Shown here: positions 10,819 to 53,395 of the stretch, piece by piece
How positions within the stretch are numbered: position 1 is the stretch's first letter
How the letters are laid out: every line of letters begins with the position of its first letter
Position numbers and translations under genes: made by a program
Notes under the pieces: model-generated
The model's input: the letters and a program-made list of their open reading frames with translations, nothing else
What the model was told of the DNA's origin: nothing
Databases searched by the model: none
IMG/VR virus record: IMGVR_UViG_3300034050_000199
Coordinates: 1 to 53,395 of that record
DNA from: a virus
Taxonomy: Duplodnaviria > Caudoviricetes
Reading direction: 5' to 3' (one strand)
DNA: 53,395 nt

Positions 10819-10846
10819 ATATTACGATGTATGTTTTGGTATTTAT

Positions 10847-10857
10847 ACGTAATGATA
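10847..10857 (+). promoter_or_regulatory. candidate late promoter element RCGTRATNNTA
   Basis: ACGTAATGATA before the first plus-strand gene; similar at 20372, 23698, 34361, 41913. Confidence 0.45.
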
Positions 10858-10880
10858 CAGGTATACTAAAATCTATTTAT

Positions 10881-11126
10881 ATGGCACAAAAATTAAGCGC
10901 TGAAGCGGCAAAGAAAAAAGCAGCTAGAGATCTTGCTTACGCAAAAAGCCCTGACAGAAGAGCGAAGAAAGCAGATGCACAGAGAAAGAGAAGAGCAGAT
11001 CCAAGCGGAGCTAAGGGTAAAGACTGGGATCACAAGAATCAGAGATGGGAATCACCTGCGCAAAATAGAGGCAACGATGGTTTAGGTACTAAATCGGAAA
11101 GTGGTAAAAAATATAAAACAAGATAG
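10881..11126 (+). CDS. basic protein with degenerate HNH-like motif (KDWDH...S.AQNR)
   Basis: ATG at 10881 with A/T-rich leader preferred over the GTG at 10773, which lies inside an inverted repeat. Confidence 0.65.
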   Translation: MAQKLSAEAAKKKAARDLAYAKSPDRRAKKADAQRKRRADPSGAKGKDWDHKNQRWESPAQNRGNDGLGTKSESGKKYKTR

Positions 11127-11127
11127 C

Positions 11128-11619: not shown

Positions 11620-11637
11620 TTAATAAATAAAATATAC

Positions 11638-13344: not shown

Positions 13345-13424
13345 TCACAAACAAAAATATAAATTACAATAAACACGGGGTTACCAAAAAAACAATTAGA
13401 TAACTAAAATAAAAACAATAATAT

Positions 13425-13676
13425 ATGGCAGGAATAATTGCATACCCAGTAGCATCACCGGAAACAAGTGATCTATTGTTGGGTACAGATATAAAAGAAG
13501 ACGGTAACTTAACCAAGAACTTTACAATTGGTTCAATCTATTCACTAATGAAAGAAGTAGGATTTTCTGGGTTACAGGTTTATACAGATAATGCCGCAGC
13601 TTTAACAGCTGGTCTAGAAGAAAATAACGTGTATCGAAAAGCTGATGGTACATTAATGGTTGTATTTAATCCCTAA
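13425..13676 (+). CDS. short paralogue of the fibre N-terminal anchor domain
   Basis: MAGIIAYPVASP..DLLLGTDIKE.G.LTKNFTIGSI closely matches the 11638 N-terminus. Confidence 0.8.
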   Translation: MAGIIAYPVASPETSDLLLGTDIKEDGNLTKNFTIGSIYSLMKEVGFSGLQVYTDNAAALTAGLEENNVYRKADGTLMVVFNP

Positions 13677-13679
13677 CTT

Positions 13680-14426
13680 ATGGCAATAATCTATAGCTAC
13701 CAAACGAATACAGACATACTAGCTACAGATCTTATTATAGGTTCATCAACTAAGGTTGTAAACGGTAAAAAGAAAAATGTAACTAAGAATTTTCAGATAG
13801 CTAGCATTGCCGAATTCTATAATGAGATAAGTGCTATTGCTATTGCGGGTCAAAACAATTTCTTTTTCCAAAATCAAATTGCTCCAGGTAGAAAGCAAGG
13901 ATCAATTAGTTTTATAAATGGAAGTGGAACGGGTACGCCTTTCAGTAATATAACAATATTACGATTAAGCAAGTTTGCTACTTCTGGTAATTTAATAATA
14001 GACTATATAAACACATTAGTTAACCAGGCTATCATTATTGCACAATGTGATGATTTGAATAACTTTGGTATATATAAGTTTAATAACATATTACCCGTTT
14101 CGGGGCAGCCTAATTTTGTGGACATCGTAATAGAATCAGTAGGAGCGCATGGAAGTATTCTACAAGATAAGTTTTATGCTATCGCGGTTTATCCAGGATT
14201 TGTTAATCCAGATATAGATCCAGGTGGAAATGATAAGAACTTTGTATATACTCAAGCAGTTGCTGCGTCAATATGGAATGTGCAACATGACCTAGATAAA
14301 TTTCCATCAGTGTCTATTGTTAACGATGATAACACACAGGTTTTTGGATCAGTAGAATATGTAGATAATAATAATTTAATAATAACATTTACCGCACCGT
14401 TTTCAGGTAAGGCATATATGAACTAA
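13680..14426 (+). CDS. virion structural / fibre-associated protein
   Basis: Same N-terminal D.IIG...TKNF motif; C-terminal W.VQHDL.KFPSVSIV domain. Confidence 0.75.
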   Translation: MAIIYSYQTNTDILATDLIIGSSTKVVNGKKKNVTKNFQIASIAEFYNEISAIAIAGQNNFFFQNQIAPGRKQGSISFINGSGTGTPFSNITILRLSKFATSGNLIIDYINTLVNQAIIIAQCDDLNNFGIYKFNNILPVSGQPNFVDIVIESVGAHGSILQDKFYAIAVYPGFVNPDIDPGGNDKNFVYTQAVAASIWNVQHDLDKFPSVSIVNDDNTQVFGSVEYVDNNNLIITFTAPFSGKAYMN

Positions 14427-14428
14427 CT

Positions 14429-15637
14429 ATGGCAATACAATATTTAAGTAGTATAAATTTAACTACGAATCAATTACAATATGCGGTTATACAACCGGCA
14501 ACTACGGATCCTACATTATATGCACCTGTAGAAGGACAGATATACTATAATTCTGTATCTAATAAATTAAGACTTTATGATGGAGCCTTATGGAATGATG
14601 TTGGAGCAGGAGTAACTTCCTTTGCAGCAACAGATGGTACGTTTATAAATCTAACTCCTAATACTACACAAACAGGCGCAGCTACTTTAACGGCTGATCT
14701 TAGCGCAACTGGAACTCCAGATAGTACAGTGTATCTTCGAGGAGATAACACTTGGTCACCAGTTTCTGCAATACCAGGTACATACGTATGGTCAATACAA
14801 GGCGGAACAGGTGGACCTACAAATGTGGCATCCGGAACAAATATAACTTTTGCCGGGGGTACAAATGTAACAACAGCATTAGTTGGTAACACATTGACAA
14901 TAAACGCTACCAATGCTTCGATTACATTAACAGGTGATGTTACTGGAACAGGTACAACTTCTATAGCTACAACAATAGCCTCAGGAGCGGTAGAATTTTC
15001 TATGATGGATCCAGTTGCGGTAGTTACTGCAGCAGAAGGAATTGCAAGTAATGATAATGATGTAACATTACCAACATCTGCAGCCGTAAAAGCTTATGTA
15101 GATTCATCATTAGTAGGCTCTTTAATATTTCAAGGAGGATATAATGCAGCAACAAATACTCCAAACTTAGATGTTCCTCCAACAGGTACTATTAAGAAAG
15201 GATTTATGTGGACAGTAACCGCTGATGGTTTATTCTTTGGAACGGAACAACTTAGAATTGGAGATTCTGTAATTGCAAATATTGACACGCCTACAGTCTT
15301 AGCTGATTGGACAAGAGTTCAAAGTAACATTGATTTGGCTACATTAAGTACAGTAGGTATTGGTAACGTAAACGCCGGGACTGGGATTGCCGTTAGTTAT
15401 TCTAATGGGACTGCTACAGTAAGTACCCTAACAACTTCTTATGCTACAACAATATCTGTTACATCAACAATAACGCATAGTTTAAATACAAAGGATGTAA
15501 ATGTACAATTATACGATACAGTTACATTTGAAACAATTTTCGCAGACGTATCTAGACCAACTGTAAATACAGTTACAGTAACATTTGCAACTGCACCAAC
15601 CAATCCAATTAGAGTATTAGTTACAAAGGTTGGGTAA
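14429..15637 (+). CDS. tail fibre / structural protein
   Basis: Thr/Gly-rich; LTGDVTG, LPTSAAVKAYVD and ITHSLNTKDV.VQLYD modules. Confidence 0.8.
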   Translation: MAIQYLSSINLTTNQLQYAVIQPATTDPTLYAPVEGQIYYNSVSNKLRLYDGALWNDVGAGVTSFAATDGTFINLTPNTTQTGAATLTADLSATGTPDSTVYLRGDNTWSPVSAIPGTYVWSIQGGTGGPTNVASGTNITFAGGTNVTTALVGNTLTINATNASITLTGDVTGTGTTSIATTIASGAVEFSMMDPVAVVTAAEGIASNDNDVTLPTSAAVKAYVDSSLVGSLIFQGGYNAATNTPNLDVPPTGTIKKGFMWTVTADGLFFGTEQLRIGDSVIANIDTPTVLADWTRVQSNIDLATLSTVGIGNVNAGTGIAVSYSNGTATVSTLTTSYATTISVTSTITHSLNTKDVNVQLYDTVTFETIFADVSRPTVNTVTVTFATAPTNPIRVLVTKVG

Positions 15638-15654
15638 TTTAATACAAATTTAAT

Positions 15655-18600
15655 ATGAGCCAAAAATTTAAAAGTGATATAGAAACACAAGCTGGCCTTA
15701 TAGACTCATTCGGGTTTACAGGAACAGCTGGTCAAGTACTATCTTCTACAGGAACTAAAACAGAATGGATCACTCCTCCTCAATCACCAGGAGGAGGTGG
15801 ATCTAGTCAAGTATTCTATTTTAATGGAGGAACAGCATCAAGTGTTGGTGGCTATTATCAAATGAGTCCAGTTGCTAACACAGGCACAGCTGCTGATTTT
15901 ACTATTAATGCAAATGGATATATAGCTTCATTCTTAACAGATGTGGCTTCACCAAATCAACTTAATATACCAGCTGGAAATTGGAACTTTGAAATTTACT
16001 TTAGCGCAAGCTCTAGTGGAGGTTCTCCATCTTTCTACGTTGAATTATATAAATATTCTTCGGGTGGTGTCTTTACTTTAATAGCTAGTAGTTCAGCAGC
16101 ACCTGAAGGTATAACGAATGGTACAGCTATTGATGCTTATTTTACACCTTTAGCGGTTCCCGCAACTACATTACTGGCTACTGATAGATTAGCTGTTAGA
16201 GTATATGTAACTCACTCGGGTAGAACTATTACAATGCATACCCAAAATGGACACCTTAGTGAAGTTATTACAACATTCTCTACAGGTTTAACCGCTTTAA
16301 ATGGATTGACCGAACAAGTACAATATTTTAGTACGGGTACAGCTGGTACAGATTTTAATATTGCTTCCGCTGTAAATACACACACATTCAATTTACCGAC
16401 AGCATCGGCTATAAACAGAGGTGCTTTAAGTTCAGCAGATTGGATAACATTTAATTCGAAAGCAAACGCAAGCGGCACAACGAACTACGTGCCTAAATTC
16501 ACAGGATCTACAACGTTAGGTAATAGTCAGATATTTGACAATGGAACAAATCTAGGGATTGGAACGACAAGTCCTGGAGCAAAACTTGATGTGTCTTCGG
16601 GAAATATTAATTTAAGTAATTCTTTTAATTTAACTGGTAGAAACAATGCTAATACTTTAAATATTGCGTTAATTGGTAGAAGTTCAACAGACAGAGTAAT
16701 TATTGATGCTGACGGTTACGGAACTAATATTGGTGGGGGCGGTTCTGTATTAATTAATCAAAACGGTGGTAACGTTGGAATTGGAACTACAAGTCCTGCA
16801 AGAACATTACACGTTTTAGGCCAAACAGGAATTGGTACAGTTTTAAAATTAGAAGGTGCTACAGGAACGACTACTTATTTACAATTATCATACAATGGAG
16901 CGACAAACTCTCAAAGTGGGTATATAGGTTATGATTCAAGTTCTAATATGTCATTATTTACAAATGACACCGAACGTATGCGTATTGCTTCAAATGGTGC
17001 AATTAAATTTAACAACTACGGATCAGGTTCATTCACAGGAACAGCTACTCAAAAATTAGCAGTAGACAGTTCAGGTAATGTTATAGAGATTCCAATTGGT
17101 GGTGGTGCTGTAGACGGATCAGGTACAACAAACTATGTGACAAAGTGGCTAGATGCTGATACAATAGGTAATAGCCAAATATTTGATAATGGCGCAAATG
17201 TAGGTATAGGAACAAATATACCAAGTGCTGCTTTTCAAGTTGGGAATGGAACGGGTTTAAAAAACATTTTAATAAGTGGTAGTGGTAATAATTTAGGATT
17301 AGGAGGATTAAGTGTATCTTTCTTAGGATTTGCAACGGGTACTATATCTACAGTAAATACATCAGGAGCAGTTCCTTTAGGTGTTGGTACAAGGTCAACA
17401 CAACCATTAGTCTTGGGTACAAATAACGCTGAAAGAATGCGAATTGATTCAAGCGGAAACGTAGGTATTGGAACTTCAAGTCCTAGTGCAATGTTAACTT
17501 TAAACTCAATAACACCTTTTATTAGAATAGAACGCGCGGGCGTACCAACTTGGCAAATTCAAAACAATACAATTGTTGCAACGGCTGGTTTTTCAATTAA
17601 TAACATTACAAACGGAACTACGCCTTTTTTTATAAATGGTACAAATGACAATGTAGGTATTGGCACTGGTAGTCCAAATGGTAAGTTAGAAATTAGAGGA
17701 ATTGAATCAAATACAAAAGATTTACTTTTAAATTTATCTAAATTTGCTTACGGAACAACACAATTTTATCAAAACTATTCAAATACATTTTACACTGCTG
17801 GTAAAAGTTTAGAAATTGAAGTTGAGGCTTTACCTTTATTACAATTAGCTGTTAACAATGCTGGTTCACAAGGAAAAGTTATATTTCCAAACGGAAGCGT
17901 TGGAATTGGAACGACAAATCCAGGGAGTAAATTATCAGTTATTCAAGACAACGGAGTTATTACACAATTTAATACAAATTCACCTTCTTCTGGAAATTTA
18001 GCTATTGAACTTGGCGCTTACTCAACAACATATCCTAATTCAGGTACACATATAAGAGCCTATTTTAATCACGGATTAACCGCTAATTCTGATTTAGCAT
18101 TTGAAGTAAACGGAGAACAAGAAAAAATGCGTATCACTTCAGCGGGCAACGTAGGTATTGGAACAACAAGTCCAGCTTATCAATTAGATGTAGCTAGCTC
18201 AGGTAGGTTTGCTGGATTATTAATATCAAATGATAGATTGTGGCTAAACGGAAACACAGTTATTTCTGATTGGATTTCTAGCGGTTTATCAGCAGGATAT
18301 AGTCAAACAAATAGTTATGGATGGATTAATGGAGCAGGAAACCTTATTTTAGGTACAAATGGTTCTGAAAGAATGCGTATCACTTCTGGCGGTAATGTAG
18401 GAATTGGAACCACAAGCCCAGGCGGATTAGGAGAGAAATTAACAGTTATAGGTTCTATAAATTCAAATAACACAGCTCTTTTCTTTGGAGATGGAGCAGA
18501 TAATAGTGCAAGTATTTATTCAACTGCTGGACCAATTAAATTTTTAGCAAATGCGTCTGAAAGAATGCGTATTACTTCAAGTGGTAATGTAGGTATTGGA

Positions 18601-18795
18601 ACGACTAGTCCGAACGCAAGTGCAATACTTCATTTACGCTCAACTACACAAGGGTTTTTGCCTCCAGTTATGAGAACAGGAGAAAGAAATGGCATAAGTA
18701 GCCCTGCAGTAGGACTAATGATATTTAACGAAGAAGAAGATGTGGTACAAGTGTTTACTAACGGAGGGGGATGGAGAACACTAGCTTGGGCGTAA
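15655..18795 (+). CDS. long tail fibre / receptor-binding protein with repeated (ERMRI.S.)GNVGIGT.SP modules
   Basis: About 9 GN(V/L)GIGT-type repeats; C-terminal GFLPP...GLMIFN module. Confidence 0.85.
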   Translation: MSQKFKSDIETQAGLIDSFGFTGTAGQVLSSTGTKTEWITPPQSPGGGGSSQVFYFNGGTASSVGGYYQMSPVANTGTAADFTINANGYIASFLTDVASPNQLNIPAGNWNFEIYFSASSSGGSPSFYVELYKYSSGGVFTLIASSSAAPEGITNGTAIDAYFTPLAVPATTLLATDRLAVRVYVTHSGRTITMHTQNGHLSEVITTFSTGLTALNGLTEQVQYFSTGTAGTDFNIASAVNTHTFNLPTASAINRGALSSADWITFNSKANASGTTNYVPKFTGSTTLGNSQIFDNGTNLGIGTTSPGAKLDVSSGNINLSNSFNLTGRNNANTLNIALIGRSSTDRVIIDADGYGTNIGGGGSVLINQNGGNVGIGTTSPARTLHVLGQTGIGTVLKLEGATGTTTYLQLSYNGATNSQSGYIGYDSSSNMSLFTNDTERMRIASNGAIKFNNYGSGSFTGTATQKLAVDSSGNVIEIPIGGGAVDGSGTTNYVTKWLDADTIGNSQIFDNGANVGIGTNIPSAAFQVGNGTGLKNILISGSGNNLGLGGLSVSFLGFATGTISTVNTSGAVPLGVGTRSTQPLVLGTNNAERMRIDSSGNVGIGTSSPSAMLTLNSITPFIRIERAGVPTWQIQNNTIVATAGFSINNITNGTTPFFINGTNDNVGIGTGSPNGKLEIRGIESNTKDLLLNLSKFAYGTTQFYQNYSNTFYTAGKSLEIEVEALPLLQLAVNNAGSQGKVIFPNGSVGIGTTNPGSKLSVIQDNGVITQFNTNSPSSGNLAIELGAYSTTYPNSGTHIRAYFNHGLTANSDLAFEVNGEQEKMRITSAGNVGIGTTSPAYQLDVASSGRFAGLLISNDRLWLNGNTVISDWISSGLSAGYSQTNSYGWINGAGNLILGTNGSERMRITSGGNVGIGTTSPGGLGEKLTVIGSINSNNTALFFGDGADNSASIYSTAGPIKFLANASERMRITSSGNVGIGTTSPNASAILHLRSTTQGFLPPVMRTGERNGISSPAVGLMIFNEEEDVVQVFTNGGGWRTLAWA

Positions 18796-18807
18796 AATAA
18801 TAAAAAC

Positions 18808-18851
<44 letters not shown>

Positions 18852-18853
18852 CT

Positions 18854-20415: not shown

Positions 20416-21969
20416 ATGACAGAAGCAATCGTAAAGAATCTTAACTTTGGCGAAGATGCAAAGAATAAGATATTCGAAGGTATTACTAAATTAACTAGAG
20501 CCGTAAGTTCAACACTTGGTGCTAGTGGTAAATGTGTAATATTAGAAGATGGAGCTGGTAGACCAGTAATTACAAAAGATGGTGTAACAGTAGCAGATAG
20601 TATTATACTATTAGATCCAGTAGAAAATATGGGTGCAACGTTACTTAAGGAAGCTGCAAGAAAAACAGTTAAAGAAGCTGGAGACGGCACAACAACCGCT
20701 ACAGTATTGACGCATTCTATTTTAAATCATGCTTATAAAGTTCCAAAAGGTACTAGTAGCAGAGAATTAAAAGAAGGTATTGAGAATGCTACAGAAAAAG
20801 TAATTAAATATTTAGAGAGTGTTGCAATACCAGTATCAGGAGATATGATTGATAACGTAGCTACTATATCTGTTAATAATGATCCTGAATTAGGTAAGGT
20901 TATTGCAGATGCTTTTAGAGCCGCTGGTGACAATGGTATTGTAATGATGGAAATGTCAGATCTTAATACTACAGAAATAGAAGTTATTGATGGTATTCAA
21001 TATGATAAAGGATTAGTTAATTCACATTTTGTAACTAATGCTTCAAAAAAAGCAGCAGAGTTAGATAATGCTTTGGTTCTTATCATTGAATCACCAGTTG
21101 AAAATATTAGACAAATACAAGGTGTTTTAGAACACTGTATGAAAATAAAAAAACCATTACTTATTATTGCGGATATGGAACCACAAGTTCTTTCAGTAAT
21201 TGCAATGAACAAAGTTAAAGGTAATTTAAAAGCAAACGTTATTAACGCGCCAACGTACGGTGTTAATAAAAAAGATACATTAGATGATTTAGCATTATTA
21301 ACTGGAGCTACAATTATTAACGAAGATCTTGGAGATGATATGGATCTTATAACTCCAGAACATTTAGGATCATGTATTAAAGCTGTAACAACCGATGCGG
21401 AAACAATTATTCAAGTTGGAGAATATTCACAAGAAGTATTGGATCTTATTGATACAGTAAAAAAACAATTAGAAACAGCTAAGAATCCAGCTGATGTAAT
21501 TAGATTGGAAAGAAGATTAGCAAGATTATCAGGCAAAGTAGCTGTTGTAAAAGTAGGTGCTGGATCTGATATAGAATTAAAAGAAAAAGCGGATAGAGTT
21601 GAAGATGCAATCTGTGCAACAAAAGCGGCTATTAAAGAAGGTATTGTACCTGGCGGCGGAATTGCTTTATTAAATGCCGCAATGTATATTGGTGGATTAA
21701 ACAATGGAGAGCAAGCATTACTAGATGCAATCAAAGCTCCTTATCATACAATATTATCAAACGCTGGAATTGAAATACCAATACCACAAGAAGAAGGCTT
21801 AGGTTTAAATGTTATAACTGGTGAAACAGTTAATATGATTAAAGCCGGTATTATTGATCCATTACTTGTAACAAAGTCTGCGTTAAAGAATGCTTCTTCA
21901 GTTGCTACAACTATTTTATCAACCGATTGTGTAATAAATAATCTTAGAATTAATGAAGGCAATAGGTAA
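20416..21969 (+). CDS. groEL: chaperonin GroEL (phage-encoded)
   Basis: ITKDGVTVA, AGDGTTTATVL, RVEDA..AT.AA..EGIVPGGG, GIIDP..VTKSAL.NA.S motifs. Confidence 0.97.
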   Translation: MTEAIVKNLNFGEDAKNKIFEGITKLTRAVSSTLGASGKCVILEDGAGRPVITKDGVTVADSIILLDPVENMGATLLKEAARKTVKEAGDGTTTATVLTHSILNHAYKVPKGTSSRELKEGIENATEKVIKYLESVAIPVSGDMIDNVATISVNNDPELGKVIADAFRAAGDNGIVMMEMSDLNTTEIEVIDGIQYDKGLVNSHFVTNASKKAAELDNALVLIIESPVENIRQIQGVLEHCMKIKKPLLIIADMEPQVLSVIAMNKVKGNLKANVINAPTYGVNKKDTLDDLALLTGATIINEDLGDDMDLITPEHLGSCIKAVTTDAETIIQVGEYSQEVLDLIDTVKKQLETAKNPADVIRLERRLARLSGKVAVVKVGAGSDIELKEKADRVEDAICATKAAIKEGIVPGGGIALLNAAMYIGGLNNGEQALLDAIKAPYHTILSNAGIEIPIPQEEGLGLNVITGETVNMIKAGIIDPLLVTKSALKNASSVATTILSTDCVINNLRINEGNR

Positions 21970-44757: not shown

Positions 44758-46164
44758 ATGGGAGCATATTCAAATCCACAAATACCTATTGACACACAAT
44801 CAGGACAATACTATAGGGATCTTACAAATACAATAGCAAGCAATACTGTTAATACTATTAACACATGGGCCGCAAAAGCCGCTGAGAATAAAAAAAATAA
44901 TGAAGCTTTAAAAGTAAAAGTCGGAGAAGAAGAAAGTGCGTTATATAGAAATCTAAGCAGCACACAGCAACAAAATCCTACAGTTAATTTTGAAGAATTA
45001 TATAGACCTCAAATAAAAAGATACGCTGAATTAAGAACAAGCATATTAAACGGAACAAGTACTGATCCTTCTAGAGATAGAATGGAAGCAGATAAAATAT
45101 TTGCAAGTGTTGGTAATATTAAAAATTCATTAGTGGATTTATCAAGTGAAGGTTTTGATGAAAAATATTCTAAAATGGGTGGTGCAGGTGGTTATGCCGT
45201 AAAAGAAAATGATCCAAATGTTATGAAGTCAATGCTAATATTCTCAGGTAAATTACCCGGTAAAAAAGTAGCAAGATTTGAAGATAATGATCCTTCTAAA
45301 GTAGTTTGGGATATATACGACGGTGAAACTAAAATACAATCTTTATCAGCTGAACAATTAAAGAAAGCGGCTAGTGGCCAAGGTTTATTAAAAGTAATAC
45401 CAAATGCTGCAGATTCTATAGACAATGCAAAAGCCGCTGTACCCGATGTATTTGATGTGAAAGATGGATTGCCAACTGGAACAATTAAACAAGAATATTT
45501 AGGAGAGGTATACGAAAAGGAATTACCTGGACAAGAAACATCGATAGTTAGTGGTTATCAAAAAAATACCAAAAAGTATGTAGCTACAGCAAAAATTAAT
45601 AAAGAAGCTATTATGGCAAACCAAAACTTTTTAAATGTTTTAAATGCTAAAGCTGACGGTTTCATTAATGGCTCTGCGGATAATTCTCAAGCAATATTAT
45701 TCCACAATACATATATTGCTAAGTCAGATCAAGATTTGCTTGAATGGGATAAACCTATGACTACAGAACAACAAAATAAATTCAAATACGATTATAGAAT
45801 GTTTGTTATAGATGGATTACCGGAAGAACAAACTGTTCCAGGATCTGGAATTATTGAAAAAGAAGAAATTACAAAACAAGTTATATCTAAACCAACAGGT
45901 GGTAAAGGAGGAAGTAATAAACCAAATAAACCATCTGCGGCCGCTGAAAAACAAGCAAAATTAGATGCCGAAGTTGCTGATTTAATAAAAACTAAAAAAG
46001 GAGGCCTTACTAGACAAGGGTATACATTAAGTATTATAGATGGCAGATGGGGCCTTTATGATAAAGATGGGTTACCAAAACCTGGAACAGAAAATATTAC
46101 AAGTCCTACAGAATTAGCTACATTTATTGGTGGATCACGACCAAGTAAAACAAAATTAAAATAA
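44758..46164 (+). CDS. putative internal virion protein
   Basis: 468 aa between the pilot-like gene and the giant gene; call is positional. Confidence 0.6.
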   Translation: MGAYSNPQIPIDTQSGQYYRDLTNTIASNTVNTINTWAAKAAENKKNNEALKVKVGEEESALYRNLSSTQQQNPTVNFEELYRPQIKRYAELRTSILNGTSTDPSRDRMEADKIFASVGNIKNSLVDLSSEGFDEKYSKMGGAGGYAVKENDPNVMKSMLIFSGKLPGKKVARFEDNDPSKVVWDIYDGETKIQSLSAEQLKKAASGQGLLKVIPNAADSIDNAKAAVPDVFDVKDGLPTGTIKQEYLGEVYEKELPGQETSIVSGYQKNTKKYVATAKINKEAIMANQNFLNVLNAKADGFINGSADNSQAILFHNTYIAKSDQDLLEWDKPMTTEQQNKFKYDYRMFVIDGLPEEQTVPGSGIIEKEEITKQVISKPTGGKGGSNKPNKPSAAAEKQAKLDAEVADLIKTKKGGLTRQGYTLSIIDGRWGLYDKDGLPKPGTENITSPTELATFIGGSRPSKTKLK

Positions 46165-46182
46165 AAAATAACAATAATATAT

Positions 46183-49100
46183 ATGGCAAAGTATTTTAAT
46201 AATAACGGAGAAGAATATACTATAGAAGAAATCGTAGCAGCTGCTGAAGAAAACAATAAAAGTGTTGAAGACATTATAGCAGATAATGGTTTAACTATGG
46301 ATGGTGAGAAGCCGGGAAAGTCTCAGGGTGTAACTGCAAAGAAACCGGTAGTTGCACCAAAAAAACGAAAATCGGTTTTACCATCGGGAAATACTTCTTC
46401 GGGTTGGAATACTAAAGAGGCACCAAAATATGGTATTGAAGCTATTACGGAAACTTTTCAAATAAAAAAGAAAGCTCAAGAAAAAAAAGCAGCAACTAAA
46501 AAAGCAGAAGTTAAGAAAAGCAAAGCTGTTGTTAATAATTTTGTAGATGCACAGCCTGATATAGCTAATCCTTTTGATACAACAATAAAAGCAGATGTAA
46601 CTGATCCATTTAATACGGGTGTAAAATTAGATGTAAGTAATATACAAAGCGATTATTTAGGTAGAGAAGATAAAAAAGCAATGCAATTTATTAATTCTAG
46701 TGTTAATTTTGACGAAGCTAACAGTAAGTTAAATGATGAATTAAATGATTCTCAGACTATTGATTATGTAAGAGAAGGAGCAAAAGAATATTATAATGAA
46801 TTAATTGCAAATCCACTTACTGAAGTTGCTGGGTTATTTGGTGCAAATATTGATATAAAAATGGCCCCATATAAACCATTAGAGAATGAGAAGAAACAAG
46901 CTAGAGAAGAATTAGCTAAAAAAGGCATAAAGATTACTAATGAAAAAATAGAAGAAAGAGCTAAATCTATATATATAGATAATCAAATATTAGATCAAAA
47001 AGGTAAAGCTGCTGAAGAATATTTTGACACATTAGATGATGACAAATTAAAAGACCAATTAAAAATTAAAGCGATTGCTGATAAATTAAATGCATCGGAC
47101 AAAGCTAGGCAATATACAATGCTATCTAAAGTTTATGATTCTCAAATAAAAAGCTTTGGTAGTTATGCAAATAATATAAGAAAAAAATACAATGACGGTA
47201 GTATAACGCCTGAAGAGTTAGCAGAATATAAAGTTAAAGCAAAAGAAGCTAAGGAAGCTTATGGATATTTAGAAAATATTTATAAAGACTTTCCTAAAGT
47301 AGAGAAGCAATTAAAAACAGACACAGAAAAACTAGACTTTTATAAATTAAATTATGATGATGTAGAAGGTAATCTAAAAAGATTATATGCAAGTGGTTTA
47401 AAAGTATTAGGTGGAACGTTAAAAATTGGTGGTGAAAGCGCTAAGTTTTTAGAAGAAAGCATAACAGGTAATATAAGCCCAATTGGTACAGGAACAAACT
47501 TAAGTACTATTGGAGGTATGATGTTGGAAGATGCCGAGACCGAAACACAGGATTTAAAATCTATAACTTTTGAAAGTGTTAGTAATTTTAATGATTTTGG
47601 TAAATATATGGGTAATCTGTTCTCAGATCAAATACCTATATATGCTTCAATGTATTTTGGTGGTTCCGCAGGAGCAGGTGCAGTTTCGCTTAGTTCGGGT
47701 GGACAAAAGATACAAGAAATGGAAAACGAAGTTGGAGCTAACTATAGTTTAGGTACAAAGCTACTTACAGGTTATGCTTATGCTACAGCTGAATTCATTC
47801 CAGAAAAAATAGGTACACTTAGAATGTTTGAGAACCTAAAAGGTACTATGGCTTCTGTTGGTAAAGAATCAAGAGAATTATTTAAAGACGGACTATTTAA
47901 GTCTGCTATTGGAATTGGAGGTAAAACGGCAATGGAATCCACCATAGAAGGTGGTACTGAGGGTTTGACTGAATTTTTAGATATGGCTATTGATGAGCAT
48001 TTATTAGGTAAAGAATTTACAGCTCAAACAAAAGTAAAAAGGATTAAAGAGGCTGTTGCCGGTGGAGTATTTATGGCTGGTCCTATGCAAACTATTGGAG
48101 GTGCTAATACTTTAATTGCAAAAGAATTAAAAAACTATGCAACCGAAAACGAAATACAAGAAAGTAAAAAGATTATAGATAGAATCGATTTTTTACAGAA
48201 TGAGTTAGCAACTAATGCTAGTTTATCAAGTAGTGAATCAAATCAAATCAAACAAGAGATAAATAATTTATCTGATACTTCTATTGGTATAATTGAAAAT
48301 TCTCAAGATAGAGTTTACAATATGACTACAGAAGATATGGTTGCTGTAGTTAATATAAATAAAGAACAAGCTAACTTAAAAAATAAGTATACAGAATTAA
48401 TTGACTCTAATTTTTCAAATGAAATTAAAGTTGAAAAAGCAAACGAATTAAATAAGGAATTTAAACAACTTGAAAAAGAAAGACAGTTTTTATTAACGGA
48501 TAAATATGCTACAATAAATAAAGTAGTTAATAACGCTTTGGTTATTAATGACAGCATTGAAAATATAACTAAAATAGCTAATTCTATTGGACAAGTTGAA
48601 TTTGATAATAAAATAGGTGATCAATCTGGTATTGCTGTATTTAATTCACCAAAAGAATTAGGTGAAGCGTATAAAGTATGGTTAGTTAAAGATAATAAAA
48701 ACGAAGATGGTACGGAAAAGAAAACACCTGCTCAAATTGATTTAGAAGTAAAAGAAGCAATTAACTCAGATGGTTTTAAATTACCAAATGGACAAATTGT
48801 AATCAATAAAGCTGTTGCTGCTAATACAGGGGCTATTAACGTTGCTAACCATGAATTCTTACATAAAATACTACAATCAACATTTGAAGATAAAAAACAA
48901 GCTAGTTTATTAGTTAATCAATTTTTAAATGTATTGAGCAATAAAGAAAGAGCTATTGTTCAAAAAAGGATTGATGATAATTATAGATATTCAATAGACG
49001 CAAACGGCAATAAAGTTGAGAATGATTTTGAAGATTATGCTGAAGAATATTTTAATTCATTTATTGATGCTTTAAAATACGAAGAGATTAATAACAAAGA

Positions 49101-52100
49101 TAACTTTAAACAATTATTAATTAGAGTTGCTTATCCTATATTAAAGTATTTTAAAAAATTAGGTTTTAATAAAATAGAATTTGAATCAGGTGATGATGTT
49201 TATCAATTTTTAAAGTCCTACCAAAAAAATATATCAAAAGGTAGAATTAGTAAAAGAGCAACTAAATTACTTAGCCAAGAAAAAGTAGGTGGTAGAGTAA
49301 TGAAATCAAAATCTATTCAAGAAAGAATGGATAAACTTGATGATCAATTAGGTTCAGGAGAAATAGACATTGACATGTACGAGACCCGTATGGTTGCCCT
49401 TGAAAAAGAGGAATTTGAAGAATCTAAAAAAGCATACGAAGAAGAAAAGAAAACGGTTAAAAAAGAACCAACTAAAAAAGAACCAACAGAAATAAGTGAA
49501 TCAGCTGCAAAAGCAAAAGCTAAATTAGATAGTATTGGTAATGATCCTAAAGGGTATAATCCAAACAATCCAGCTATTTACGATGAGCTTGACAAAATGG
49601 TTAAAGCTAAATCAAGAAACTATAGAACTTCAAACGGGACCGTTATTGATCTTACAAGTAAAGAGAAGGGTGGATTAGATGGATTCAATATGGAAGAAAT
49701 GGTAAGTTATGTTAGAACTTCCATGATCCCTTATATTGCTAAATTTGATCCTACTAAAAATAATAGTTTGTATGGCTATATCAATGCCCAGTATATTAAT
49801 AGAATGAAGGCTGCTCTGAAAAGTGGAGAAGTTGCTGATGTTGTATTTACTGAAGATGTTAGTGAAATGACTAAACTTTCTAATGAAGAAGTTGAGGTAA
49901 AAACACCTTCATTACCAGAAAGGAAAAGATACCAGAATATTTTAGAGTCTGGTGTATTTTCACCAGCTGTTATTGAAGATATACAAGCAAAGATATTACC
50001 AATAATAAGAACTTTAAAATCTAAAATAGATGAGAAGGTTTCATTAAATAAAACAGTACCTCCTATTATTGCTGAAATACGTAACGAGATTGGTAAACAA
50101 GCTGATATTGACGTTAAAAGAGCTATGGGCGGTAAAGAAGATGGCCAACTTAGAAAGTTCTTATTAACAAATAAAAAACCTATTCTTGAAAACATGACTA
50201 CTACATGGTTAATGGGTAAAGATAATGGTAAAACAGTTTCAGGTGGTATGCCTTTTGCTGTTCAAAAAAGAATTAATAATCAATGGACAAGTTATCCAGA
50301 TTGGATTGGAAGAAAAGTTGATAGAGAATCTGTTAGCACTGATTTAGCTGGTAGAACATCTGGTGCTGAATTAGTCAGAAGATTACCTAATGTAGCTAAT
50401 AATATTTCTGATGAAGTATTTTTAGAGTCTATTATAGATCCAGTTACAGGATTACCATTAAGAGGTAGAAAAGAATCATTAGCAAAAGCAATAAGCGAGG
50501 AAATTACTTTTGATATAATATCAGATGATTTAGCAAATGAAGGTATATTATCTCAAGCATTACAGAAAAATCAAGAAATACTGGGTGCAGAAATTGGTAA
50601 AGTAATTGTACAAGAGTTTGATAGATTAGCTGAAAGGGGTAATGTTAAATTTTCTTTATCTTCGCAAAAGAATATAAACTTAGATAAAGCAATGCAATAT
50701 CTAATTAAAAATGGCGGAGATGTAATACAAATAGAGGAAGATTTAAAAGAAAGATCTAAAGACGAAAATACTAATGAATTTAGAAAACTTTATAAATATC
50801 TTATAAGCAATAAGGTTACTAAAGATGACATAATTGATATTATTAAAAAATATACAGAAAGTTTATCTAAGATAGCTTATAATTACCATGAAAAGTATTT
50901 AGTAAATTTAATAAACTCTACATCTAAAACAGGGCCAAGAGCTAAATCTTATGGTGGAAATAATAACAATGTTCCTGATATAGTTATTGGAGCGGCTTTT
51001 AGAATAAAAGATAAAGACAAGTTAAATAAATATAACGGTTCATTAGCATTTGTGGAAGCTAAACTAAATGCTTATGCAAGATTGACTTCTGGTACTTTAA
51101 ATGCTTTAAATACTAAGCATAATAATAAAGAATGGGCAAAATCTATAAATGATCTATATTCTAAATTTAATGATTCTACATTAGGAAAACAATTAAACAA
51201 GTATACAGAAAGTAATAAGACTGATGCAGGTGCTCTTGTTATTAAAGATGGTGAATTAAATAATGTAAATAATCTTTTATTAAATAATAAACTAGTAGGT
51301 AAGATTGATTTAGGTATTGATGCAATATTAGATATTAATAATTCTAAAACATTTAAAAACGATCTGTTAATTATAAAAACAACAGTAACAGATTATTTTG
51401 GCGAAGATTTTTTTAATACATACTTTGGCAATGAAGATGTTAGTAAGAATATAATATCTGCACAAATAGAGTTAAAGGTTGAACAAAATAAATTTATAAG
51501 GCCTAGAGTTTACTTTTATATTAATAGAAATATTGCTAACAATATTAATAAATTAAATATAGAAAAAAGCAATTTAACGGAAATACTGCCAAAAGCGGAT
51601 GCTGTAATTAAGAATAAAACTTTATTAAAAGAGAATAAATTAATTGAAAACTCTGTTAAAGTAGTTAATTTTAGTAAATCAATATCAACCGCTACTGATT
51701 ATATTAATAAAAACAATTTAAGAAGATTAGACACTGAAACTTCTTATGAATTACTTGATCAATTAGCAAAAGAAATTGAAAATTATTGGGGTGTTTTACC
51801 TAATGATGTTATTCTTGGAATGAACAGAGCTGTAGATTATGCTGTGGACGTAATAGAAGATCGCGAAGGATCTGGCTTCTTAATGGAAGCATTGAATCAA
51901 GGTTTGAATATTGAGACTGTTAAAAATGCTGAAAAGCAATTAAACGAATTTATTGATAAAAACAAACCAAAAAGCACAATGTATAGCAAATCCTTGGATT
52001 TTGAATTCAATGATATACTAGAAAGAAATACGGGTGTTGCAGCATTTACAAAAGTATCTGATGTAGTGGCTAAAAGAACAGGTATTAAGAAAAACACATT

Positions 52101-53395
52101 ATCATTCTTTGTACCACCTTCAGCTGATGACTTTAGAGGTTTAACAACTTATATGTTTGCTGGTAAAGGTAAACAAGGAGAACAAGATCAAGAATTCTTT
52201 GATAAAAACTTAACTGTTCCGTATGTAAAAGGTATTAATACTTTAGATTCTGTACGTCAGTCTATTAGAAAAGAATATAAGATGTTGCTTAATAATTTCC
52301 CTGATATTAAAAAGAAACTTGAAAAGTTAACACCAGATAAAGGTTTTACTTATGATCAAGCTGTTAGGGTTTATCTTTGGTCGTCAACTGGTAAGGAAGT
52401 TCCTGGTTTATCAAGAACTGATAAGAATAAATTATTGTACTTTGTAAAACAAAATCCTGATTTACTGGCTTTTGCAAACGCATTGTCAATAACGGGTAGA
52501 CAAGATGGCGGCTGGATTGATCCTTCAACAACTTGGGATAGTGAAACTATTATATCTGATCTTCACAATATTACTGAAGGCGCTGGTAGAAAGAAATATC
52601 TAGAGGAGTTTATAGAAAACGCTGATGCAATATTTACAAAAGAAAACCTAAACAAGATACAATCTATATATGGTACAAATACAAGAGAAGCATTAGAAGA
52701 TTCTTTATATAGAATGAAGAATGGTAAGAATAGACCAGAAGGTACTGATAGAGTAACAAATACTTGGATGAACTGGATTAATGGTTCTACTGCTGCAATT
52801 ATGTTCTTTAATACTAGATCAGCATTGTTACAGACTATATCAGCAATTAACTTCATAAACTGGAATGATAATAATCCATATATGGCAGGTAAAGCTTTTC
52901 TTAATCAGAAACAATATTGGTCTGACTTCGCGATGATTATTAATTCCGACAAATTAAAAGAAAGAAGATCTGGTTTAAAAGCCGATGTTACTCAAGCTGA
53001 GATTGCTAATGCTGCAAACAGTGCTAAAAACAAATTTAACGGTGTTATATCTTATTTACAAAAAATAGGTTTTACACCTACACAAGCAGCGGATAGTTTT
53101 TCTATCGCAGTTAGCGGTGCTACATTCTATAGAAATAGAGTTAACACATATTTGAAAGCAGGTGATACTGTACAAGAAGCTGAAGAAAAAGCATTCAATG
53201 ATTTTTCAATCATAACGGATCAATCAATGCAATCCGCCGATCCAATGTACGTTTCAAAACAACAAACAACTGCATTAGGACGCATTATATTGGCTTTTGG
53301 TAATACTCCAATGCAATATAATAGATTGATCAAAAAAGCTACGTTAGACTTAGCTAATAGACGTGGAGATTGGAAAACAAATGTTTCTAAAATTG
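46183..53395 (+). CDS. giant (>2400 aa, 3'-truncated) multidomain internal virion protein: zincin HExxH, sigma-region-2-like, PD-(D/E)xK-like
   Basis: ATG 46183 (MAKYFNNNGEEY...), frame open to the window end; HEFLH at 48850, KFDPTKNNSLYGYI at 49741, PD...EAK at 50974-51063. Confidence 0.85.
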   Translation, partial: MAKYFNNNGEEYTIEEIVAAAEENNKSVEDIIADNGLTMDGEKPGKSQGVTAKKPVVAPKKRKSVLPSGNTSSGWNTKEAPKYGIEAITETFQIKKKAQEKKAATKKAEVKKSKAVVNNFVDAQPDIANPFDTTIKADVTDPFNTGVKLDVSNIQSDYLGREDKKAMQFINSSVNFDEANSKLNDELNDSQTIDYVREGAKEYYNELIANPLTEVAGLFGANIDIKMAPYKPLENEKKQAREELAKKGIKITNEKIEERAKSIYIDNQILDQKGKAAEEYFDTLDDDKLKDQLKIKAIADKLNASDKARQYTMLSKVYDSQIKSFGSYANNIRKKYNDGSITPEELAEYKVKAKEAKEAYGYLENIYKDFPKVEKQLKTDTEKLDFYKLNYDDVEGNLKRLYASGLKVLGGTLKIGGESAKFLEESITGNISPIGTGTNLSTIGGMMLEDAETETQDLKSITFESVSNFNDFGKYMGNLFSDQIPIYASMYFGGSAGAGAVSLSSGGQKIQEMENEVGANYSLGTKLLTGYAYATAEFIPEKIGTLRMFENLKGTMASVGKESRELFKDGLFKSAIGIGGKTAMESTIEGGTEGLTEFLDMAIDEHLLGKEFTAQTKVKRIKEAVAGGVFMAGPMQTIGGANTLIAKELKNYATENEIQESKKIIDRIDFLQNELATNASLSSSESNQIKQEINNLSDTSIGIIENSQDRVYNMTTEDMVAVVNINKEQANLKNKYTELIDSNFSNEIKVEKANELNKEFKQLEKERQFLLTDKYATINKVVNNALVINDSIENITKIANSIGQVEFDNKIGDQSGIAVFNSPKELGEAYKVWLVKDNKNEDGTEKKTPAQIDLEVKEAINSDGFKLPNGQIVINKAVAANTGAINVANHEFLHKILQSTFEDKKQASLLVNQFLNVLSNKERAIVQKRIDDNYRYSIDANGNKVENDFEDYAEEYFNSFIDALKYEEINNKDNFKQLLIRVAYPILKYFKKLGFNKIEFESGDDVYQFLKSYQKNISKGRISKRATKLLSQEKVGGRVMKSKSIQERMDKLDDQLGSGEIDIDMYETRMVALEKEEFEESKKAYEEEKKTVKKEPTKKEPTEISESAAKAKAKLDSIGNDPKGYNPNNPAIYDELDKMVKAKSRNYRTSNGTVIDLTSKEKGGLDGFNMEEMVSYVRTSMIPYIAKFDPTKNNSLYGYINAQYINRMKAALKSGEVADVVFTEDVSEMTKLSNEEVEVKTPSLPERKRYQNILESGVFSPAVIEDIQAKILPIIRTLKSKIDEKVSLNKTVPPIIAEIRNEIGKQADIDVKRAMGGKEDGQLRKFLLTNKKPILENMTTTWLMGKDNGKTVSGGMPFAVQKRINNQWTSYPDWIGRKVDRESVSTDLAGRTSGAELVRRLPNVANNISDEVFLESIIDPVTGLPLRGRKESLAKAISEEITFDIISDDLANEGILSQALQKNQEILGAEIGKVIVQEFDRLAERGNVKFSLSSQKNINLDKAMQYLIKNGGDVIQIEEDLKERSKDENTNEFRKLYKYLISNKVTKDDIIDIIKKYTESLSKIAYNYHEKYLVNLINSTSKTGPRAKSYGGNNNNVPDIVIGAAFRIKDKDKLNKYNGSLAFVEAKLNAYARLTSGTLNALNTKHNNKEWAKSINDLYSKFNDSTLGKQLNKYTESNKTDAGALVIKDGELNNVNNLLLNNKLVGKIDLGIDAILDINNSKTFKNDLLIIKTTVTDYFGEDFFNTYFGNEDVSKNIISAQIELKVEQNKFIRPRVYFYINRNIANNINKLNIEKSNLTEILPKADAVIKNKTLLKENKLIENSVKVVNFSKSISTATDYINKNNLRRLDTETSYELLDQLAKEIENYWGVLPNDVILGMNRAVDYAVDVIEDREGSGFLMEALNQGLNIETVKNAEKQLNEFIDKNKPKSTMYSKSLDFEFNDILERNTGVAAFTKVSDVVAKRTGIKKNTLSFFVPPSADDFRGLTTYMFAGKGKQGEQDQEFFDKNLTVPYVKGINTLDSVRQSIRKEYKMLLNNFPDIKKKLEKLTPDKGFTYDQAVRVYLWSSTGKEVPGLSRTDKNKLLYFVKQNPDLLAFANALSITGRQDGGWIDPSTTWDSETIISDLHNITEGAGRKKYLEEFIENADAIFTKENLNKIQSIYGTNTREALEDSLYRMKNGKNRPEGTDRVTNTWMNWINGSTAAIMFFNTRSALLQTISAINFINWNDNNPYMAGKAFLNQKQYWSDFAMIINSDKLKERRSGLKADVTQAEIANAANSAKNKFNGVISYLQKIGFTPTQAADSFSIAVSGATFYRNRVNTYLKAGDTVQEAEEKAFNDFSIITDQSMQSADPMYVSKQQTTALGRIILAFGNTPMQYNRLIKKATLDLANRRGDWKTNVSKI
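46314..46379 (+). other. -1 programmed ribosomal frameshift signal (slippery G GGA AAG + H-type pseudoknot)
   Basis: In-frame heptamer 46314-46320; 6-nt spacer; stem 1 46327-46337/46348-46358 (11 bp); stem 2 AAACCG 46342-46347/CGGTTT 46373-46378. Confidence 0.75.

Follow-up and report, generated by a model that had tools for sequence, protein, structure and literature searches.

A probable programmed -1 frameshift site with a predicted H-type pseudoknot near the 5' end of a giant structural gene of a Flavobacteriia-type podovirus

Can the first codons of a giant phage gene also be used for making a second, short protein? This question is raised by a very long open reading frame in the IMG/VR virus record IMGVR_UViG_3300034050_000199, of which the whole stretch of 53,395 nucleotides (hereafter, the window) has been analysed. 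An earlier note made from the letters alone had proposed a canonical -1 frameshift site with an H-type pseudoknot at codon 46, at which the shift truncates the product rather than extends it and gives a short protein having the acidic N-terminal domain of the giant protein. Comparative evidence supports this core reading, and we consider it likely that the site is a genuine programmed -1 frameshift producing a truncated protein which shares its N-terminus with the giant structural protein.

The cassette and its gene

The following features have been assigned.

46183..53394, + strand: giant ORF (0 frame), ATG at 46183, no stop by the end of the window, at least 2404 aa
46183..46320, + strand: codons 1-46, common to both products, an acidic domain plus a linker ending in P-G-K
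46314..46320, + strand: slippery heptamer G GGA AAG in the X XXY YYZ register (CCG GGA AAG is codons 44-46)
46320..46415, + strand: -1 extension, 31 sense codons (46320-46412) and then TAA at 46413-46415
46321..46326, + strand: spacer TCTCAG, 6 nt, read from the sequence
46327..46337, + strand: 5' arm of stem 1, pairing with 46348-46358 (11 bp including two G-U)
46338..46340, + strand: loop 1 (AAA), from the sequence plus the predicted pairings
46341..46347, + strand: 5' arm of predicted stem 2 (GAAACCG), within the stem-1 loop, 7 bp with 46373-46379, one of them G-U
46348..46358, + strand: 3' arm of stem 1, abutting the 5' arm of stem 2 with no loop 2
46359..46372, + strand: loop 3, 14 nt, A-rich, between stem 1 and the 3' arm of stem 2
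46373..46379, + strand: 3' arm of predicted stem 2 (CGGTTTT), pairing with 46341-46347

The cassette is compact (about 70 nt). The in-frame heptamer, the 6-nt spacer and the 11-bp stem 1 with two G-U pairs, which the earlier note had described, are all present, and so are the second heptamer, G GGA AAT at 46386, and the pairing of the loop with downstream sequence across a 14-nt A-rich loop; for this pairing 7 bp were found, one pair beyond those noted. The sequence also confirms the open -1 frame with its stop at 46413-46415, and with 31 codons counted after GGG AAA the predicted frameshift product is 46 + 31 = 77 aa. Three TCG codons in this region had been called unusual; TCG accounts for 8 of the 156 Ser codons of the giant gene, and 3 of these 8 lie at codons 64, 68, and 73.

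The site stands out within the gene and the window in several respects. GGGAAAG occurs only once among the 24 in-frame XXXYYYZ heptamers of the gene and is built from rare codons (CCG and AAG for 3 of 59 Pro and 50 of 262 Lys codons, respectively). The -1 stop-to-stop run at 46308-46412 (35 codons) is the joint longest of 415 runs, and 33 or more open -1 codons are found at only 0.34% of 2354 codon positions. This ORF lacks a start codon, and stops close it 2-4 codons before the heptamer. On the + strand of the 53-kb window, no 33-nt segment folds more stably than the stem-1 hairpin (-16.4 kcal/mol), whereas folding of the whole 107-nt segment is less striking (z = -1.92; 12 of 200 shuffles fold equally well or better). 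There is no T-run 3' of the hairpin and no terminator was called there, and in an Rfam scan at 46150-46550 the best scores were 8-15 bits, far below the gathering scores (41-95), and none of them was for a frameshift element. Shine-Dalgarno-like purine runs (GGTGAG or AAGGAG) were seen by eye upstream of the heptamer in the window and in the related contigs L036 and L037; a stimulator of this kind is not claimed, because the runs are missing from L035, L040, and L041.

Judging from sequence relationships, the giant gene probably encodes a structural protein (at least 2404 aa) and belongs to a podovirus of the Flavobacteriia type. Relatives of the protein are annotated as virion structural proteins, it is partly homologous to gp21 of Elemovirus, a "structural protein" (aa 369-779, 28% identity), and its closest relatives in culture are podoviruses, namely Elemovirus and Pachyviridae. 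A scan that included the upstream neighbours assigned no Pfam or PHROG family to the giant protein, the PHROG scan gave no tail chaperone match, and the matches in the ESM Atlas belong to unnamed clusters only. For the cassette region, no match was obtained by blastn against cultured phages and no relatives by scans of genome contigs. The window encodes no tRNA. The stretch is represented in many lake-water metagenome runs, at least half of the sampled words being found in 17 of the 24 listed runs. Comparison of four public sequencing runs, one of them with a tentative RNA label, with the stretch gave no listed difference in the heptamer and zero indels, and the variants were only those known from L001- and L030-type contigs.

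Homologues and RNA structure

Homologues were collected in a census of IMG/VR by residues 1-44 only, which lie upstream of the heptamer, so that the collection had no bias toward the signal. Nine loci were obtained, three of them on new contigs (L035, L039, and L041). All nine have an in-frame G GGA AAG at codon 45-56 and 31-35 open -1 codons after it. In L041 the codon before GGA is GTG (Val) in place of CCG (Pro), and the heptamer is nonetheless intact. Given this conservation in 9/9 loci, the frameshift signal is evidently not a product of chance. For the alignment, 10 distinct sequences from 11 contigs were used, with 60-96% nucleotide identity to the window over the cassette; four of the ten are at least 90% identical to the window there, and some members were first retrieved by DNA patterns requiring part of the signal. 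The heptamer is invariant in all ten, and the -1 frame is open for 31-35 codons in each. One pattern-scan match, L028, was rejected as an unrelated chance match, and the final viral pattern scan gave zero new contigs.

A sister clade carries the same giant gene with a homologous N-terminal domain (33-38% identity), and the heptamer is found in 0 of its 19 loci; the metagenome contig scan gave at least six loci of this clade. The cassette is thus a clade-specific addition and not a property of the gene family, and the giant gene, as far as these 19 loci tell, can do without it. The sister clade has a different conserved hairpin at codons 20-31, without a slippery site.

Over both stems, 88.1% of pair cells are paired in the 10 sequences, against 26.6-43.5% when the partners are slid by 1-3 columns. 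Compensatory double changes are found in 6 of the 18 pairs (5 in stem 1 and 1 in stem 2), and the covariation score of 0.331 (0.220 when shuffled) was reached by none of 500 shuffles. Stem 1 (11 pairs, 91.6% of cells paired) is recovered independently by RNAalifold. Stem 2 (7 pairs) has 82.9% of cells paired, and its terminal pair is unpaired in 6 of the 10 sequences. Every sequence has a spacer of 6-7 nt, a stem-1 hairpin of -6.0 to -18.7 kcal/mol, and a duplex between the loop and the downstream segment of -5.2 to -11.2 kcal/mol, which shuffled downstream segments match in 0-7.8% of 500 trials. L039 and L041 have the same topology with different stem-2 sequences; the weakest cases are stem 2 of L034, with an internal mismatch (shuffle fraction 0.078), and stem 1 of L040, with 7 bp only. 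RNAalifold prefers to stem 2 a nested helix of alignment columns 4-8 with 71-75, and the same CGG is used by both. Stem 1 is supported by these comparisons, and stem 2, with the nested helix as its rival, makes the H-type pseudoknot a candidate fold of the cassette.

The earlier note had named conservation of the heptamer, the stems and the -1 ORF in homologues, and covariation of the stems, as checks on its proposal; the conservation holds in 9/9 loci with this type of N-terminus, and compensatory changes occur in both stems. Its suggestion of a dual-coding constraint is supported by the clustering of rare codons together with the suppression of synonymous change and the entropy pattern described in the next section.

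The -1 frame and the rival explanations

The course of events that we infer is as follows. Ribosomes translating the giant gene mRNA would reach CCG GGA AAG with tRNA-Gly in the P site and tRNA-Lys in the A site, and the predicted H-type pseudoknot 6 nt downstream, at the mRNA entrance, would resist unwinding. Some of them would re-pair on GGG AAA, translate the 31 codons of the -1 frame and terminate at the TAA of 46413-46415, releasing the 77-aa protein. Other ribosomes would melt the knot and go on to make the giant protein. The outcome would be a fixed ratio of the short to the giant protein, with one N-terminal domain in common. The sequences show how the site is built and conserved, that its stems covary, and that the -1 ORF is kept open under constraint; that ribosomes slip, how often they do so, and that the short protein is put to use are expectations. 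As a guess, the short protein may work alongside the giant protein or compete with it at the target of the N-terminal domain, in virion assembly or genome ejection.

An explanation that accepts the frameshift and gives the 77-aa product no role of its own is quite unlikely in our view, and it survives better than the other two considered here. The giant protein, very long and of low copy number, would be kept scarce from a strong late structural operon by ending a set share of ribosomes early, and the position of the site, at codon 45 out of 2404 or more, is the cheapest for such an abort. The sister clade, too, manages without a short protein, and its hairpin at codons 20-31 could also modulate translation. 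Such a use needs merely a close -1 stop; yet all ten aligned sequences keep their 31-35 codons open, when in simulated recoding (0-frame peptide and phage codon usage) the -1 frame was open with a probability of only 0.012-0.097 per sequence. The ends of the -1 frames, moreover, nearly coincide, and the sequences share the tail motif K-I-G-F-x-x-x-K-x-F-[FI]-G-[LI]-x-[YW]-stop. Entropy in alignment columns 66-111 is of the -1 type (0.64, 0.39, and 0.84 for -1-frame codon positions 1, 2, and 3, respectively), so that the most variable position is position 2 of the 0 frame.

Other measures of coding constraint bear on the same question. On the 3' side of the heptamer, pN/pS is 0.54 for the -1 frame, 0.86 for the 0 frame, and 0.97 for the +1 control. 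Beyond stem 2 the two frames are near-equally constrained (0.68 and 0.74), the -1 frame only marginally more, which leaves some room for a product of no use. Between the window and L011 (53% aa identity over 700 aa), identical codons are used at 16 of 19 positions in the overlap and at 187 of 340 outside it (one-sided Fisher p = 0.009). Among the first 200 codons, no other run of 33 codons is as well conserved in this comparison as the overlap, and conservation drops sharply just past the -1 stop. A profile of the -1 peptide had 0 matches among 1.84 billion proteins, so the tail has no homologue there, a point in favour of a product without a role; this result is expected of a hidden ORF and gives no independent support either.

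Very unlikely is a second alternative, in which the pseudoknot or hairpin has another RNA role (pausing for folding or docking of the N-terminus, mRNA stability, or processing), frameshifting is negligible, and the heptamer and open -1 frame are by-products of conserved DNA. No hairpin in the window is stronger than this stem, the Cys codons and the I-G-F of the -1 peptide coincide with stem arms, and the sister clade keeps a conserved hairpin at the same gene start without a slippery site, all of which would suit such a role. The conserved Cys codons, which overlap the stem-1 arms, may indeed be by-products of the RNA structure. Against this stand the invariance of the heptamer in 10/10 sequences despite its rare codons, its survival of the Pro-to-Val change in the overlapping codon, and the constant spacer of 6-7 nt; besides, the openness and motif conservation of the -1 frame run about 35 nt past the last paired base. 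A last alternative is that heptamer, hairpin and open -1 frame came together by chance in a linker rich in A+T and in Lys. For it one may cite the 24 in-frame XXXYYYZ heptamers of this gene, the slippery-looking runs that Lys-rich linkers yield and a z of only -1.92 for the 107-nt segment. Its probability is negligible, and in our view it is already refuted by the census and the stem covariation, with 9/9 independently retrieved loci conserved down to 60% nucleotide identity and compensatory changes in the stems.

The short product, known systems and wider leads

On the preferred reading of a programmed frameshift, the predicted short protein consists of acidic residues 1-46, a basic Cys-containing segment, and a hydrophobic/aromatic tail. 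The domain of codons 1-46 is small, with a net charge of -7. An AlphaFold model of the N-terminal domain (mean pLDDT 87.6) has the order strand-strand-helix-helix. Searches with this model gave no match at E <= 0.001 in the PDB by Foldseek and a best Z of 3.1, to unrelated chains, by VIA-align wide; a PDB sequence profile and Pfam gave nothing significant for 14 members of the domain. A LysM-like beta-alpha-alpha-beta fold appears in weak rows only (Foldseek rank 13, E = 5.4), and LysM is absent from the Pfam and PDB sequence search matches. For a pair of identical N-terminal domains, complex prediction gave a score of 0.01 and no answer, which speaks neither for nor against their association. 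The last 14 residues of the -1 extension are predicted, in an AlphaFold model of moderate confidence, to form a beta-hairpin, and the early guess of a hairpin in the tail agrees with it.

Several known systems resemble the cassette in part. The lambda G/GT system, which has relatives in siphoviruses and myoviruses, uses G GGA AAG, and, like the proposed cassette, it is a -1 shift on this heptamer that sets the ratio of two proteins with a common N-terminus in a phage morphogenesis module. In lambda, ribosomes shift late in a short gene, close to its 3' end and upstream of the tape-measure gene, and G is extended to GT with low efficiency, whereas the cassette lies at codon 45 of a giant gene in a podovirus-type genome, would truncate, and has a large predicted pseudoknot; the two are unrelated in sequence. 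A tail assembly chaperone of the G/GT type, with two overlapping chaperone ORFs just before a tape-measure gene and a shift that extends the product, was rejected as an identity for the locus, as the shift here falls within the first codons of a giant structural gene and would truncate its product, and the nearest relatives in culture are podoviruses. The pseudoknot of the coronavirus IBV has a spacer of about 6 nt, an 11-bp stem 1, a 6-7-bp stem 2, abutting stems and a long loop 3, and resembles in architecture the fold predicted for the cassette; IBV differs in being a eukaryotic RNA virus that joins two long ORFs at a U UUA AAC site, and it too has no sequence relation to the cassette.

In dnaX, a site of A AAA AAG is combined with a simple stem-loop and with a Shine-Dalgarno-like stimulator on its 5' side. 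About two thirds of that gene have been read when the ribosomes shift, and a single residue is added in the new frame. The cassette differs in that about 2% of the gene would be common to the products and a conserved 31-residue tail would be added. Tau/gamma of dnaX is similar in being a bacterial -1 shift that gives a shorter, N-terminally coincident product in a set ratio (PMC5009743). Similar in layout are the trans-frame proteins of cardiovirus (2B*), flavivirus and alphavirus, where -1 PRF takes ribosomes out of a very long ORF and into a short one embedded in it, so that the trans-frame protein is small and has few residues of the 0 frame (PMC5009743). These systems have eukaryotic hosts, unlike the cassette, and some have protein stimulators. 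In the same source, G_GGA_AAG is rated highly shift-prone in E. coli and is given as the g-t site of the haloarchaeal virus HCTV-5 (PMC5009743). According to the PRFect paper, annotated phage frameshifts are nearly all of the tail-chaperone type, with a few capsid extensions. In the literature searched, no -1 PRF into a short embedded ORF was found in a virion gene of a tailed phage, and no such use of frameshifting was found described for this phage group.

The locus offers a putative pseudoknot-stimulated -1 site of textbook quality in phages whose cultured relatives infect Flavobacteriia, and its position so early in a gene of 2404 codons or more, where it would truncate rather than extend, is unlike that of annotated phage frameshifts. 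If the reading is right, a hidden, conserved protein of 77-85 aa, invisible to gene callers, is added to phage proteomes. Translation in Flavobacteriia differs from that in E. coli, and the cassette may be used as a natural sequence of about 70 nt for probing the response of Bacteroidota ribosomes to pseudoknots.

A wider lead, which we regard as rather doubtful, is that Flavobacteriia podoviruses have generally and convergently come to make a mini-protein, an N-terminal domain with a beta-hairpin tail, out of roughly the first 50-65 codons of the giant virion gene by varied recoding signals. In the clade of the window the signal would be G GGA AAG with the pseudoknot. The short protein would then be a stoichiometric partner docking via the common N-terminal domain, and its aromatic-ended hairpin would insert into the host envelope or nucleate a channel there at ejection. 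Should the poly-A sites of Elemovirus and of Podoviridae sp. MW202828 be analogous to the cassette, the cultured elemo phages would be a direct system for studying giant virion proteins and their N-terminal mini-versions. No comparable feature was found in Cellulophaga phi13:2 gp127 and gp120 or in Tenacibaculum Gundel_1 gp090. In gp21 of elemoA (3695 codons), a cultured Flavobacterium phage, the sole homopolymer of 8 or more is an A10 at codon 57-60, which sits at the start of the longest -1 ORF of the gene (46 codons, rich in Gly and aromatic residues); at the start of this gene the 68 elemo phage records all share 95% identity or more, too much for their comparison to bear on the lead. The corresponding run in MW202828, again the sole homopolymer of 8 or more, is an A11 at codon 63-66, and it is followed by 28 open -1 codons.

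The cassette in the window

The window (IMG/VR virus record; 53,395 bases, linear, estimated completeness 84%) carries genes for the large terminase, portal, a GroEL-like chaperonin and tail fibres, and a series of 'virion structural protein' genes. The phage-encoded GroEL-type chaperonin is located at 20416-21969 (PHROG 5725, E = 1.5e-133). The closest cultured relatives are podoviruses of Flavobacteriia; terminase identity to Flavobacterium Elemovirus is 44%, and identity is 31-39% to Cellulophaga and Tenacibaculum Pachyviridae and 63% to uncultured Podoviridae sp. MW202828.1. The following features of the giant gene are used in the analysis.

46183-53394: giant gene, last in the window, open at the record end, 2404 aa
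46314-46320: slippery heptamer G GGA AAG in slippery register (codons 44-46, CCG GGA AAG)
3' of the heptamer: spacer of 6 nt
46327-46337 with 46348-46358: stem 1, 11 bp (two of them G-U) around a 10-nt loop
46341-46347 with 46373-46379: stem 2 (predicted), seven loop residues paired across a 14-nt A-rich stretch
From the shift to TAA at 46413-46415: -1 extension of 31 codons, giving 46 + 31 = 77 residues
46311-46315 with 46372-46376: alternative nested helix GCCGG/UCGGU (columns 4-8 with 71-75 of A8, the 10-sequence cassette alignment)

All elements listed in the earlier note, namely the heptamer, spacer, stem, loop pairing and -1 ORF, were found where it had placed them. Since the 5' arm of stem 2 directly adjoins the 3' arm of stem 1, the predicted topology is that of a classical H-type pseudoknot.

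The heptamer by itself means little, because the giant gene contains 24 in-frame XXXYYYZ heptamers, only one of which is GGGAAAG. The -1 stop-to-stop run starting 6 nt before it has 35 codons, joint longest of 415 in the gene, and of 2354 codon positions just 0.34% have at least 33 open -1 codons. No other 33-nt segment on the plus strand of the entire window is as stable as the stem-1 hairpin (-16.4 kcal/mol); the fold of the whole 107-nt segment is unremarkable (z = -1.92; 12 of 200 shuffles equally stable). The P-G-K codons are rare in the gene (CCG, 3 of 59 Pro; AAG, 50 of 262 Lys; GGA, 33 of 147 Gly). Two of its three CCG codons are codons 44 and 55, and three of its eight TCG codons fall within codons 64-73. 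No terminator was called and no Rfam family was found as an explanation of the hairpin.

A second slippery-type 0-frame heptamer, G GGA AAT, lies at 46386-46392, and its position is occupied by A AAA AAG or A AAA AAT in three relatives (L035, L037 and L041). A slip there would join the same -1 frame 9 codons ahead of the stop. RNA folding revealed no suitably spaced structure downstream, and this heptamer may simply reflect G-K or K-K codons of the -1 frame.

Relatives and RNA structure

Protein-based IMG/VR scans initially retrieved a 98% identical contig (L001) and a clade of about 43% identity (L002 and others). In the distant clade the N-terminal domain is homologous (33-38% identity), the P-G-K region is deleted, and GGGAAAG was found in the first 600 nt of none of 19 loci, several of which are the same contig twice (L006-L010, L012-L016, L002-L004 and L017-L022). 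In a closer relative, L011, the first 700 aa of the giant protein are 53% identical; its heptamer is the sole XXXYYYZ in 150 codons and is followed by 35 open -1 codons. The loci L027, L029, L030 and L031/L032 were added by DNA-pattern scans. Because these patterns required part of the signal, IMG/VR was rescanned without this bias, using an alignment of residues 1-44, which lie wholly upstream of the heptamer. Nine loci from nine contigs were obtained (L035, L039 and L041 being new), and in this check of conservation, proposed in the earlier note, all nine have an in-frame G GGA AAG at codon 45-56 followed by 31-35 open -1 codons. In L041 the overlapping codon is GTG (Val) in place of CCG (Pro), with the heptamer intact. 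Including the window and L030, the comparison set comprises 11 contigs with 10 distinct sequences, whose cassettes have 60-96% identity to that of the window. A scan with the -1 tail motif gave no more contigs, and genome collections gave no relatives.

The sister clade (L006-L010, L012-L016) has its own strong conserved hairpin at nt 59-91 after the ATG (codons 20-31; -13.2 to -15.6 kcal/mol), formed by GC-rich codons of M-A-A-E-Q-K-x-S-A, with invariant stems, a variable loop and the stem base over an internal ATG.

In A8, 88.1% of 177 pair cells are paired in the pseudoknot as drawn, against 26.6-43.5% when partners are slid by 1-3 columns. Of 18 pairs, 6 show compensatory double changes, 5 in stem 1. 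None of 500 column shuffles reaches the covariation score of 0.331, though related sequences may beat shuffles without structure. Stem 1 was recovered independently by RNAalifold, which cannot draw pseudoknots; in its fold the downstream CGG is instead paired with GCCGG, located at the heptamer's 5' edge. In mRNA that is not being translated, this nested helix would sequester the first heptamer bases in competition with stem 2; it is impossible while a ribosome occupies the heptamer. Since it uses the CGG of stem 2, stem 2 remains a candidate, short of proof. A 6-7 nt spacer, the stem-1 hairpin and a loop-to-downstream duplex occur in all ten sequences; the duplex has -5.2 to -11.2 kcal/mol, equalled with shuffled downstream sequence in 0-7.8% of 500 trials. 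In L041 and L039 it is formed from different nucleotides, the strongest argument for stem 2.

Constraint on the -1 frame and its interpretation

Among the ten -1 peptides, G1, K2, C8, K19, G21, F28 and G30 are invariant, and the stop is preceded by K-I-G-F-x-x-x-K-x-F-[FI]-G-[LI]-x-[YW]. When synonymous codons were redrawn from phage usage with the 0-frame peptide kept (20,000 draws per sequence), the -1 frame stayed open in only 1.2-9.7% of draws. In the 3' half of the overlap, entropies at the three -1-frame codon positions are 0.64, 0.39 and 0.84, the usual coding pattern for that frame; variability is thereby highest at 0-frame position 2. Summed pairwise pN/pS past the heptamer is 0.54 in the -1 frame, 0.86 in the 0 frame and 0.97 in the +1 control, and past stem 2 the -1 and 0 frames differ little (0.68 vs 0.74). 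In the comparison with L011, no other stretch of the otherwise fast-evolving linker is as well conserved as the overlap, in which codons are identical at 16 of 19 conserved residues versus 187 of 340 elsewhere (p = 0.009). Similarity collapses directly after the -1 stop. Five substitutions in a row are seen at 46416-46420 in L001 and in a contig from the public sequencing run X21, a pattern that fits a constraint ending at this stop. Lacking a start codon and closed a short way upstream, the -1 ORF is reachable by shifting only.

The -1 frameshift reading of the earlier note is thus supported by the nine loci, the stem covariation and the conserved -1 ORF, and in our judgment the cassette is probably a genuine set-ratio -1 frameshift giving a short, N-terminally coincident protein. 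The proposed slip would set the ratio of this protein to the giant one, with the N-terminus in common. It is unlikely that the shift is real but only throttles giant-protein synthesis, a reading against which the conserved length, endpoint and motif of the -1 ORF speak. Another RNA-level role of the structure, with negligible shifting, seems more doubtful still; the Cys codons overlap stem arms and their conservation may therefore be RNA-driven, but the same three properties of the -1 ORF speak against this role. Chance co-occurrence of the signal elements is effectively excluded.

The proposed mechanism is standard -1 PRF, and PMC5009743 describes G_GGA_AAG as highly prone to shifting in E. 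coli. In its predicted outcome the cassette is closer to dnaX, where the frameshift product is the shorter one, and to short embedded trans-frame ORFs known from some RNA viruses than to phage tail-chaperone or capsid frameshifts. Annotated phage frameshifts are nearly all in tail chaperones, according to the PRFect paper. Our literature search found no paper on ribosomal frameshifting in a Flavobacterium phage; for frameshifting in connection with phage ejection proteins it found one paper, whose subject is kuravirus-like Escherichia phages. The observation is confirmed and the frameshift interpretation supported, as a known mechanism in a new form.

Predicted products and related giant genes

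For residues 1-46 (14-sequence alignment), AlphaFold predicted two short strands and two helices with a mean pLDDT of 87.6, and no significant structural or sequence match to this model was found. The -1 part (10 sequences) was predicted weakly overall (pLDDT 62.5), with a beta-hairpin in its last 14 residues (block pLDDT 84). Net charge is -7 in the shared part, which is acidic, and +3 in the new, basic part, which contains three Cys and five aromatic residues. Since the folded domain is common to both proteins, the short one may compete or co-assemble with the giant protein at a putative binding site of this domain. The hairpin, with its aromatic end, may serve in beta-augmentation or membrane contact.

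No Pfam or PHROG family was found for the giant protein; residues 369-779 match Elemovirus gp21 ('structural protein', 3694 aa) with 28% identity. In L029 the N-terminal module is 95% identical to that of the window, residues of about 100-800 are not alignable, and homology returns around an HEFLH motif (44% over 374 aa). The cassette therefore moves with the N-terminal domain and not with the body. The giant genes are mosaic: in L029/L034 and L030 the module with the cassette has 90-96% DNA identity to 46183-46500, about 700 residues beyond it do not align, and homology returns near residue 820, which suggests modular exchange. The HEFLH motif (HExxH, zincin-like) is at residue 890 (48850-48864) in one of the segments conserved with L029, and a Pfam scan detected no metalloprotease family.

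Homopolymers are found near the starts of two related giant genes. In Flavobacterium phage elemoA_7-9A (NC_055852.1, L042), the structural gene gp21 (7768-18852, 3695 codons) has a sole homopolymer of at least 8, an A10 run at codons 57-60 (nt 169-178). The longest -1 open run of the gene (46 codons, rich in Gly and aromatic residues) begins precisely at this A10 run, and its longest +1 run (61 codons) begins in this region too, at codon 45. In this cultured phage the A10 run may be a comparable recoding site or a site of transcriptional slippage. In MW202828.1 (L026), the giant gene (741-12320, minus strand, 3859 aa) has as its sole homopolymer of at least 8 an A11 run at codons 63-66 (nt 187-197), just past two N-terminal repeat domains and followed by 28 open -1 codons; the -1 run that contains them has 34 codons and ranks sixth in length among 524.
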